A stretch of DNA of 31,701 bases from Patescibacteria group bacterium. Lineage in GTDB: Bacteria > Patescibacteriota > Microgenomatia > UBA8517. The stretch spans positions 1-31,701 of the forward strand of contig JBBTZE010000087.1 in the NCBI GenBank assembly GCA_038061545.1, read 5' to 3'. Below are positions 20,492 to 22,573 of the stretch, in pieces. A program made the translations under genes and the position numbers. The number at the start of each line of letters is the position of its first letter. Position 1 is the stretch's first letter. Under the pieces are notes generated by a model, which worked only from the letters and a program-made list of their open reading frames with translations, searched no databases and was not told where the DNA came from.

Positions 20492-20509
20492 TAGGAAAGC
20501 ACATTAAAG

Positions 20510-20818
20510 ATGGCTACAGGAAGACTTAGAGTCAAACTCAAAAGCTACGATCACCGTGTGATCGATGAAGCGGCAGCGAAGATAGTCGATACTGCTTTGG
20601 CTTCCGGTGCAAAAATTATTGGTCCGATTCCTCTCCCCACAAAAAGAACCCTAATGGCAGTCAAAGAAGGTCCTTTTGTAGACAAAGACGCCCAGGAGCA
20701 TTTTGAAATTCTGGTTCATAAACGCCTAATCGATATCATCGACCCCTCCCCCCGCACAGTCGATTCCCTTGGGAATCTAGACCTTCCTGCAGGCGTGTCA
20801 ATCGAAATAAAAATGTAA
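20510..20818 (+). CDS. rpsJ: 30S ribosomal protein S10
   Basis: LRVKLKSYDHR, GPIPLPT, HKRLIDI, LPAGVSIEIKM. Confidence 0.98.
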   Translation: MATGRLRVKLKSYDHRVIDEAAAKIVDTALASGAKIIGPIPLPTKRTLMAVKEGPFVDKDAQEHFEILVHKRLIDIIDPSPRTVDSLGNLDLPAGVSIEIKM

Positions 20819-20947
20819 CGCAAGTTACATTTACTTCTACGCCGAGTGCCCCGTCAAAATCGCTCTTTGAGCCGTGAACGAATAGTTCCCAAAAGGTGAA
20901 AGGTAAGATTGACTGGGGCTGGAGTCAGTATTGAGATTAAGATGTAA
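20789..20947 (+). mobile_element. Putative 129-bp insertion or scar in the rpsJ 3' end with a synonymously recoded duplicate tail
   Basis: 20789-20818 and 20918-20947 both encode AGVSIEIKM-stop in the same frame, at 20/30 nt identity. The spacer is structured. Confidence 0.6.
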
Positions 20948-21067
20948 TTATCCTATAACTCTTGACTTCTTCTTCTTCTTCTTCTGTTAGGATTCCCCCA
21001 GCTTGCACATTTTGGCTTAAAAAGACAAATTTTTCTATTCTAACGATGATGATGAAGAGGAGATAAA

Positions 21068-21406
21068 ATGAACCGTTTAATTCGTGTTGAAAGCCATCCG
21101 AACAGCCGTGTTCGTGATTTTCATATCAACCGCGTGGTTTCTCAGTCAGTAATTGAACATTTCATGCGCCCTTTGCGGGATAGCTCAGAGAGCTATCTTA
21201 CAAAAGTTGGTGATCCAGGCGCAGAAGTTGTCCGTTCACTTATGCGTCTTCCGGGCGTCACTGAGATTTTCATCAAACCCTATGAGATAGGTGTTCATAT
21301 CTCTGAGGTTCATGACTGGGATTCTCTGGAGCCGAGCGTACTTCGGGTACTTTGCACCAAAGTGTTCGGCACAGATCCCGACGACGTTCAGATCGAACAC
21401 AAGTAA
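21068..21406 (+). CDS. Stand-alone NifU/Nfu N-terminal-like domain protein
   Basis: ESHPN...LMRLPGVTEIFIKPYEIGV...DWDSLEPSV resembles the Nfu_N pattern. GAGGAG RBS upstream. Confidence 0.65.
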   Translation: MNRLIRVESHPNSRVRDFHINRVVSQSVIEHFMRPLRDSSESYLTKVGDPGAEVVRSLMRLPGVTEIFIKPYEIGVHISEVHDWDSLEPSVLRVLCTKVFGTDPDDVQIEHK

Positions 21407-21544: not shown

Positions 21545-21681
21545 ATGACATCCAATGTGGATGGCTGTCAGCGCGTAAGCGCTGTCATAACAAGAAGTGG
21601 ATAGACTAAAAACAACTACCACAATTAGTAGTCTTTGAAGGAATCTTCTTTTTGAAGCGCCTTTCAGAGGCGCTTTTTTTT
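21545..21681 (+). promoter_or_regulatory. Structured rplC leader ending in an intrinsic terminator (attenuator candidate)
   Basis: Stems CATCCA/TGGATG, CAGCGC-GTAA-GCGCTG, GACTA/TAGTC, then AAGCGCCT-TTCAG-AGGCGCTT plus a T run before rplC. Confidence 0.65.
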
Positions 21682-21730: not shown

Positions 21731-22573
21731 ATGAATTTAAATACAATACTCGGTTCAAAAAGTGGCATCAGCCAGACCTTCGTCAATGGTTTACGGATTC
21801 CGTCCACCAAAGTTGTGGCTGGTCCATGCGTGGTCACAGGAATTAAAAGTATGGATAAGGACGGTTACTGGGCAATTCAGTTAGGTTTCGGGAGTAGAAC
21901 TTCAAAAAATATTTCAAGAGCTGTAAAAGGTCATTTAAAACACTTTCTGGCAAAGCCAGATCCTGCTCTGTCTGGCACAGCCAGACCTAGCTCTGCAAGG
22001 CAGGACAAAAGCACTCAGCTTCAAAATTACCCCAAGCATATACGCGAAATTAGAGTCGATTCTGCGCCAGAGTTCAAAGTCGGAGACGTAATTACACTCT
22101 CCGATATTTTTTCTGTTGGAGATCTTATTTCAGTAACTGGGATCAGTAAAGGAAAAGGCCATGCCGGAGTTGTTAAAAGACATCACTTTAGGGGGGGACC
22201 AAAGACTCACGGACAATCAGATCGCCACAGAGCTCCAGGATCAATCGGACAAACAACAACTCCGGGACGCGTTTACAAAGGGAAAAGGATGGCAGGAAGA
22301 ATGGGTGGGGAAACCGTGACAATCAAAAATGTCCATGTAATTGGAATCGATAAAGAAAAAAACGAAATGTTAATTTCTTCACCAATTCCGGGAGCCCCAA
22401 ACGCAATTTTGACAATAATTAAGCTTGCCGCAGGGTCTTTGGCCGACCTTGAACACGAAGTTGAGGCAGTAGTAATTGAAGAGGCACCGGCAGAACCAGC
22501 CTCCGCTCCAGCCGACGCCAAGGCTATGGCTGGCAAGGAAGCTACGGCGAACCAAGGGGAAGTTAAAGAATAA
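21731..22573 (+). CDS. rplC: 50S ribosomal protein L3 with two hairpin-derived insertions
   Basis: GYWAIQLGFG, SKGKGHAGVVKRH, THGQSDRHRAPGSIG, KRMAGRMG. Confidence 0.97.
   Translation: MNLNTILGSKSGISQTFVNGLRIPSTKVVAGPCVVTGIKSMDKDGYWAIQLGFGSRTSKNISRAVKGHLKHFLAKPDPALSGTARPSSARQDKSTQLQNYPKHIREIRVDSAPEFKVGDVITLSDIFSVGDLISVTGISKGKGHAGVVKRHHFRGGPKTHGQSDRHRAPGSIGQTTTPGRVYKGKRMAGRMGGETVTIKNVHVIGIDKEKNEMLISSPIPGAPNAILTIIKLAAGSLADLEHEVEAVVIEEAPAEPASAPADAKAMAGKEATANQGEVKE
21955..22005 (+). repeat. In-frame tandem/hairpin insertion in rplC
   Basis: Two 25-bp units (17/25 identical) containing the hairpin GTCTGGC-ACA-GCCAGAC. Confidence 0.55.
22497..22556 (+). repeat. Nested family B hairpins in the rplC 3' extension
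   Basis: Outer GCCTCCGCT...GAAGCTACGGCG interrupted by the 30-bp inner CCAGCCGACGCCAAGGCTATGGCTGGCAAG. Confidence 0.65.

Follow-up and report, generated by a model that had tools for sequence, protein, structure and literature searches.

In this Patescibacteria genome, rpsJ carries two differently coded versions of its 3′ end. Cassettes of this type, which contain no gene and replace the ends of genes, form a widespread and undescribed family to which the locus belongs. Our preferred explanation, which we consider probable, is that a structure-bounded cassette without any gene, composed of a recoded gene end (tail 1), a helix (P0) and a hairpin (R1), enters gene ends at a fixed point. The window analyzed here is the whole 31,701-nt stretch (contig JBBTZE010000087.1, positions 1 to 31,701). 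It belongs to a fragmented metagenome bin of 543 kb in 105 contigs, hereafter G000 or the source genome. The features of the rpsJ locus are the following.

20510-20818, forward strand: rpsJ, ribosomal protein S10, 102 aa, whose C-terminus is tail 1 (list of open reading frames; Pfam Ribosomal_S10 on the identical protein).
20789-20818, forward strand: tail 1, the recoded and translated last nine codons of rpsJ plus the stop (sequence comparison).
20789-20917, forward strand: putative inserted cassette of 129 nt (tail 1, spacer and R1), with the same layout at rpsJ of genomes G129, G022, G080 and G118.
20918-20947, forward strand: tail 2, in our best reading the displaced, untranslated original end of rpsJ, which starts on the last bases of R1.

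The initial annotation had claimed that the end of rpsJ is repeated in frame 129 nt downstream, and we confirmed this: both tails encode AGVSIEIKM followed by a stop. Tail 1 reads GCA GGC GTG TCA ATC GAA ATA AAA ATG TAA and tail 2 reads GCT GGA GTC AGT ATT GAG ATT AAG ATG TAA. All eight degenerate codons are recoded (8/8), through 10 base differences that are all synonymous and that include a serine encoded by TCA in one copy and AGT in the other. The S10 protein is made unchanged from tail 1. The insertion point separates the Pro codon from the Ala codon close to the 3′ end of the gene, and the boundaries of the 129-nt cassette are ambiguous by a shared GC. The list of open reading frames of the window contains none inside 20789-20917.

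That the layout results from an assembly chimera of two strains has, in our view, practically no chance of being correct. The bin is fragmented into 105 contigs, but the two-tail layout was found letter-identical in more than 10 assemblies originating from several wells, studies, years and pipelines, and one contig of 1391 nt from an independent run covers 20500-20949 with 0 differences. The same architecture was also observed in many other genomes. These assemblies and the spanning contig all carry both tails, which answers the concern about chimerism raised by the initial annotation: the layout is not an artefact. A minor variant contig of run X8 joins 20796 to 20948, with possible intervening letters. 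A genome-wide search had been proposed for the 129 bp; the whole 159 nt matched only the rpsJ locus itself. The spacer alone, searched in relatives, matched many places, and it is only this way that the repeat surfaced.

We further analyzed rpsJ across related genomes. Most relatives possess a single tail, and tail 1, R1 and tail 2 are joined at the same Ala codon in five genomes (G000, G129, G022, G080 and G118), of which G080 and G118 are not in the trees. The phylogenies of tuf and rpsJ separate G000 from G129, place G022 in a distant clade and nest G129 in a genus where each of the five remaining members carries one tail only. Tail 2 of the window resembles the native tails of its closest relatives (27 of 30 bases with loci L003 and L005), and tail 2 of G022 is the same as the in-gene tail of G024 over the last 21 nt. 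The tail 1 copies of the window and the four other genomes have GCA GG... in common, and the spacers of the cassettes share a CCGA(G)T linker. The tail offset is 128 nt rather than 129 in G129, so that the frame match is not conserved. The recurrence of the layout in five genomes and the clade-native character of the downstream tails support the earlier proposal that the gene-less insert 20789-20917 brought a recoded replacement tail. The search for pairs of empty and filled alleles, also suggested by the initial annotation, had a different outcome: look-ups with the exact protein returned only filled sites or unrelated contexts, and we obtained no pair of an empty and a filled allele that share identical flanks. 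The downstream flank of G129 presents no homology to those of its congeners, hence no clean pair there.

Genome G024 (locus L020) contains a partial second tail, GAA ATT AAG ATG TAA, located 9 nt past the rpsJ stop and preceded by ACATTTT, which matches the spacer of the window. This looks like a decayed cassette from which R1 has been deleted. The position of G024 also differs between the rpsJ tree and the tuf tree, a conflict suggestive of recombination within rpsJ or close to it.

Beyond tail 2, the region presents the following features.

20948-21406, forward strand: separate downstream module with a promoter-like TTGACT, a (CTT)n run and a 112-aa Nfu_N-like open reading frame at 21068-21406 (Pfam).
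21731-22573, forward strand: rplC (L3), 913 nt from rpsJ.

The normal neighbor of rpsJ is rplC. The downstream module was also found, from about 20950 on, behind other, unrelated genes in contig L098 and is therefore a separate movable module that is not part of the cassette. Its (CTT)n run (20961-20985) presents deletions of 6 or 9 nt in runs X8 and X2 and varies in 3-nt steps among assemblies. Across the family (L003-L031), the length of the spacer between rpsJ and rplC varies between 146 nt and more than 1.5 kb, and different genes occupy it: several genomes have a TlyA-like methyltransferase there, and contigs L084 and L087, which encode the identical S10, have TrpR-like genes. Within the S10 operon, this spacer is a hot spot for the insertion of genes. 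In G016 (L012, ~1780-2272), a 463-bp insert with a 128-aa open reading frame follows rpsJ and is flanked by near-identical 24-nt copies of the gene end (22/24 bases); this genome has no R1, and the insert is a different, probably recent insertion that duplicates the tail. Weak, sub-threshold matches to CyaR, ncS54 and similar sRNAs at 21602-21681 of the window correspond to a GC hairpin and a T run, and this segment is an ordinary terminator before rplC.

Between the two tails lies the hairpin R1, whose parts were defined by alignment A1 and model R1 and, for the element as a whole, by covariation on 38 copies.

20848-20919, forward strand: R1 element, hairpin of about 70 nt.
20848-20857 with 20909-20919, forward strand: stem P1.
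20865-20868 with 20900-20903, forward strand: stem P2.
20869-20870 with 20898-20899, forward strand: tandem G-A.
20871-20873 with 20895-20897, forward strand: stem P3.
20876-20879 with 20885-20888, forward strand: stem P4.
20880-20884, forward strand: terminal loop GAATA.

From the outside to the inside, P1 is followed by an internal loop with the near-invariant AAnCGC and UAAG, by P2, by the tandem G-A and by P3; the interior then consists of a GU / UGAAAA loop and of P4 closed by GAAUA. The pairing of GCCCCGTCAA with TTGACTGGGGC noticed in the initial annotation exists and constitutes P1, and what had been described as two short hairpins inside it is instead one continuous rod (P2, tandem G-A, P3 and P4). 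The model was built from 8 aligned copies and then assessed on 38. In these 38 copies, 91% of the pair cells are standard, 15 of the 18 pairs changed on both sides, and the covariation score reaches 0.586, whereas shuffles score 0.20 and slid controls no higher than 0.105. The covariance model recommended earlier therefore reveals strong covariation. No Rfam match was found on the forward strand over 20848-20919 at E ≤ 10. A motif that covaries this strongly and is absent from Rfam represents a new family of RNA or single-strand DNA motifs, whatever its role.

Several known classes were considered for R1. A riboswitch or ribosomal-protein leader was rejected because many copies lie before convergent genes or at the 3′ ends of genes. 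The U-G-A/G-A-A motif beside P3 resembles domain 2 of the hammerhead, but the CUGA turn is missing. R1 is not an integron attC site either: the RYYYAAC ... GTTRRRY cores are absent, and the element ends in (A/G)CCC ... GGG(T/C).

The source genome contains 7 copies of R1. Within the family, 44 of 125 genomes carry the element (1-15 copies each), as do 70 of the 151 genomes that were sampled from the whole class (up to 31 copies). Copies do not cluster by target gene (identity of 0.64 vs 0.63). Direct exact repeats of at least 7 nt around R1 are in modest excess (18 vs 4-9), and one subfamily is flanked by GTCAAG. This subfamily of G000 (contigs C11, C62, C51 and C28; L043-L046) possesses a conserved upstream hairpin, GGCCC.GTGA...TCAC.GGGCC; GTCAAG was found on both sides in C11 and C62 and only on the left in C51, and only a right-hand TCAAG was seen in C28, where the copy is near the contig end. 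It looks like a unit of about 125 nt that has spread within G000.

R1 also occupies conserved intergenic sites that lack tails, such as rplT-pheS and upstream of rplC, and R1 may therefore serve a host function as well. At one orthologous place in four genera (L041, L058, L062 and L070), R1 lies directly behind a conserved non-coding 3′ end (GAGAACCCAACGATGGCGATGCTCTTTT) and precedes radA, which is on the other strand. The stop codon of valS in G073 and G024 (L052 and L053) is located within the P1 stem of R1, and the last two valS residues are therefore encoded by R1. The valS of G000 is without R1 and ends seven codons past the same WP motif. A duplicated tail was searched for at valS of L052 and L053 and none was found.

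The duplication of gene ends was not limited to rpsJ. Among 106 R1 copies, 27 are flanked by a shared peptide of at least 5 aa that corresponds to two copies of the end of the upstream gene, and shared peptides of at least 5 residues were found at only 1-3 of the 106 loci in a flank-swap control. The other 79 copies present no detectable duplicated tail. The duplicated ends belong to rpsJ, rpmG (L33), gyrB, rpsI (S9), nusG, tRNA-Glu and several unnamed genes; in tRNA-Glu, it is the 3′ part, from the anticodon loop onward, that is duplicated. An element specific to S10, as first envisaged, is thus not what we observed: rpsI, rpmG, gyrB, nusG and a tRNA are hit by the same class-wide R1 family, and tail duplication is a property of R1 rather than of rpsJ. 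We curated 19 pairs of tails and found that they differ at 172 of 591 nt (29%), yet at only 13 of 197 residues, where random changes would be expected to alter 107 ± 5. Several pairs swap between the two codon families of Ser or Arg. This saturated synonymous divergence points to different evolutionary origins of the tails. In all 19 cases the cassette is 100-130 nt long, and tail 2 starts -1 to +2 nt from the end of R1.

A second helix, P0, connects tail 1 with the bases that precede R1.

20792-20797, forward strand: 5′ strand of P0, GGCGTG, in tail 1, which pairs with 20838-20843.
20811-20832, forward strand: inner hairpin of 9 bp with a GCAA loop over the stop codon, within the loop of P0; also in G129.
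20838-20843, forward strand: 3′ strand of P0, TACGCC, followed by the 4-nt linker GAGT (20844-20847).

The inner hairpin, which pairs 20811-20819 with 20824-20832, had been recognized in the initial annotation. P0 itself covaries among the rpsJ cassettes (GGCGT/ACGCC, GGCGTCAG/CTGACGCC, GGTGTCAG/CTGACACC and GGAGTTTCG/CGAAACTCC). In the 19 cassettes, tail 1 is the pairing partner of the 16 nt that precede R1. The helix begins at nucleotides 4-6 of tail 1, with its 5′ foot 3-5 nt from the joint, in 16 of them, and its 3′ strand is separated from R1 by 0-4 nt (mostly 2-4). For these 16 nt, tail 1 is by far the better partner, with a summed -214 kcal/mol vs -116 kcal/mol for tail 2. A hairpin directly upstream is also common for R1 copies in general (40% at -10 kcal/mol or better vs 16% of controls). 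The sequence of P0 is not conserved and varies with every target, and tail 1 is constrained twice, as coding sequence and as a helix strand. With P0 and R1, the insert is therefore a two-hairpin module whose ends meet at the insertion point. The proposed 7-bp inverted repeat GTCAATC/GATTGAC was not retained, since it is not conserved among the rpsJ cases and is missing in G129. Regarding the bases at the junctions, only half of the original description held: in the five rpsJ cases, T, G, T, G or C precedes the insert, which does end in G, always as GGG.

At several genes the cassettes are stacked. The rpsI of G080 possesses three perfect tails. The gyrB of G054 has four, of which the third carries a D to N change and the fourth has decayed and lost its stop. 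In another family, the rpsI of G156 presents three R1 units and four tails, the most distal with substitutions and without its stop. Tail 2 of rpsI in G085 contains an internal stop, and the displaced 3′ half of tRNA-Glu cannot pair with the present 5′ half. The decay of the distal tails indicates that downstream tails are relics and that the newest unit sits next to the gene; the downstream tail is best read as the displaced original end. Many second and third tails nevertheless remain codon-perfect despite about 30% base divergence from their neighbors, which would need very frequent turnover or some selection. Stacking two or three deep at the same point also contradicts the initial suggestion that recoding makes a tail immune to re-targeting: it gives no immunity.

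These stacks also bear on the possibility that tail 1, the spacer and R1 are removed from the RNA like an intron or bypassed by the ribosome, so that both tails would be translated in part of the messages. The almost exclusively synonymous differences between tails, the perfect middle tails of stacks, the two-hairpin insert that brings its own ends together and the constant terminal G of the rpsJ insert would all fit such a process. We regard it as very improbable, however, because the would-be final exon, the most distal tail, decays in G054 and G156, which also disfavors the spliced RNA mini-element evoked in the initial annotation. In addition, tail 2 of G085 carries a stop, the 128-nt offset of G129 breaks the frame match, the displaced half of the tRNA could not be used, no match to a ribozyme or intron family was obtained, and neither the 129 nt nor R1 resembles the core of group I or group II introns.

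Another explanation, which we judge unlikely, is that the layout is a scar of recombination. R1 with P0 would then be a host RNA module at the 3′ end (a stabilizer, a terminator or a protein-binding site), and these bacteria, which import DNA naturally, would often exchange the ends of conserved genes for foreign alleles; the exchange would be anchored in the gene body and end illegitimately at the foot of the stable R1, which would leave the resident tail behind. Several observations are in line with this scenario: the targets are the most conserved genes and hence ideal anchors for homology, the whole gene seems to have been replaced in the tRNA-Glu case, beyond its 3′ part, the rpsJ and tuf trees disagree for G024, the rpsJ-rplC spacer is generally prone to gaining and losing genes, R1 exists at conserved intergenic sites without tails, and no enzyme is tied to R1. 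Illegitimate joints should scatter, however, and the joint was found at the same codon in 5/5 rpsJ cases. It is likewise fixed for gyrB, rpsI and nusG, even between families and in every layer of the stacks. A random joint does not predict that the foot of P0 lies within 3-5 nt of it in 16/19 cassettes, and a homeologous tail of 30 nt is too short for a second homology arm.

Insertion of a cassette at a fixed point therefore remains the reading that we favor. At rpsJ, the cassette would land between the Pro and Ala codons and push the resident end behind R1. The unit from the foot of P0 to the foot of P1 would move whole between orthologous genes of different lineages through a factor supplied in trans, and the 3′ strand of P0 may help to find the target by partial pairing. 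Such transfer between the orthologues of different lineages would explain the saturated synonymous differences. Landings would persist solely at the end of the matching gene, the one place where the carried tail restores the protein. A free double-stranded circle of 129 nt is physically implausible, and we know of no intermediate for such cassettes. Nothing was found that shows an origin as a remnant of a larger element with a recombinase, as had been proposed. More speculatively, P0 and R1 could form a new non-autonomous mobile module of CPR organisms: structure-delimited, carrying the end of an essential gene as cargo in the P0 loop, aimed at orthologous ends with the 3′ strand of P0 possibly as a guide, inserting seamlessly and repeatedly, and moved by a single-strand DNA enzyme of the host. 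We hold this full version to be tentative and somewhat doubtful.

A weak candidate for the factor is a Y1 (IS200/RAYT-like) transposase. Y1_Tnp was found in 33 of 44 family genomes with R1 and in 33 of 81 without, counts that are confounded by relatedness. Among the 16 genomes with at least five R1 copies, which are related genomes, 15 have it. The Y1_Tnp genes are not adjacent to R1 and, in G000, where they encode Y1_Tnp-like proteins of ~228 aa (for example on contigs C96 and C67), they are on other contigs than the R1 copies. No Y1_Tnp match was found in G083, which has 7 R1 copies. Genome G104, a member of the family, presents 32 matches to IS200-type Y1 transposases and no R1 match; 17 of these matches have identical scores, which indicate a recent burst. 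A reverse transcriptase was rejected as a partner since no association was observed and RVT_1 was not found in most many-copy genomes.

If mobile, these cassettes would be the smallest known elements that insert harmlessly inside essential genes by bringing the missing piece of the gene along, and they would be a common feature, so far unannotated, across much of the bacterial tree (70/151 sampled genomes of the class). CPR organisms are thought to have streamlined, static genomes; the cassettes mark frequent exchange of gene ends between lineages, and their sites could be used to trace the history of recombination. Spare tails will mislead gene callers and pseudogene finders. To our knowledge, the mechanism of such end-replacing cassettes has been described by nobody.

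We compared the cassettes to known systems. Group I introns are characterized by a P3-P9 core, a U-G pair at the 5′ splice site and a terminal G; the cassette has no Rfam intron match at E ≤ 10, is only 129 nt long and is preceded by T, G, T, G or C. Group II introns were rejected because R1 is one continuous hairpin with no domain V/VI and RVT_1 was not found in most many-copy genomes. A diversity-generating retroelement was rejected as well, since the differences are of all kinds instead of being restricted to adenines of a template, and, at rpsJ, all synonymous, with no reverse transcriptase nearby. In homology-facilitated illegitimate recombination after natural transformation, one homologous arm anchors foreign DNA. 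The cassettes resemble this process in that a conserved gene could provide the anchor and resident sequence can remain beside the patch, but it predicts scattered joints at microhomologies, whereas the joints observed here are fixed per gene and tied to the feet of the helices.

REP/REPIN sequences with their RAYT (Y1) transposases and the IS200/IS605-derived PATEs are short, gene-less hairpin elements mobilized in trans. R1 is similarly a short, multi-copy and strand-specific hairpin without genes that is often located behind stop codons. REPs are, however, simple extragenic palindromes of 20-40 nt that do not duplicate gene ends, and IS200/IS605 elements have similar hairpins at both ends and a fixed target of 4-5 nt. 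Unlike all of these, R1 possesses internal loops with invariant bases, and its left-hand helix P0 varies by target, in contrast to the left ends of IS200/IS605 elements, whose sequence is conserved.

Elements that replace the end of their target gene are also known. The inserts of fungal mitochondria (Allomyces atp6, rps3) are mobile endonuclease reading frames with duplicated C-terminal coding ends. Like the R1 cassettes, they are located near the end of an essential gene and bring in-frame, diverged C-terminal codons, but they carry a homing-endonuclease gene that explains their mobility, whereas the R1 cassettes encode nothing. The e14 element and phage 21 in icd of E. coli, and ICEs in the ends of tRNA genes, rpsI and rplL, are mobilized by integrases and carry a replacement gene end. 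As in these integrative elements, the in-gene end would come from the insert and the original would be displaced downstream as an untranslated copy, and tandem accretion at the same site, known for those elements, was also observed. In contrast to them, the cassettes are 100-130 nt long, have neither gene nor integrase, and lack an identical att core (at least ~7 bp), with only GC or GT and scattered bases common to the junctions. They also differ in being bounded by two hairpins, including the conserved one of ~70 nt, and in that one family serves many target genes.
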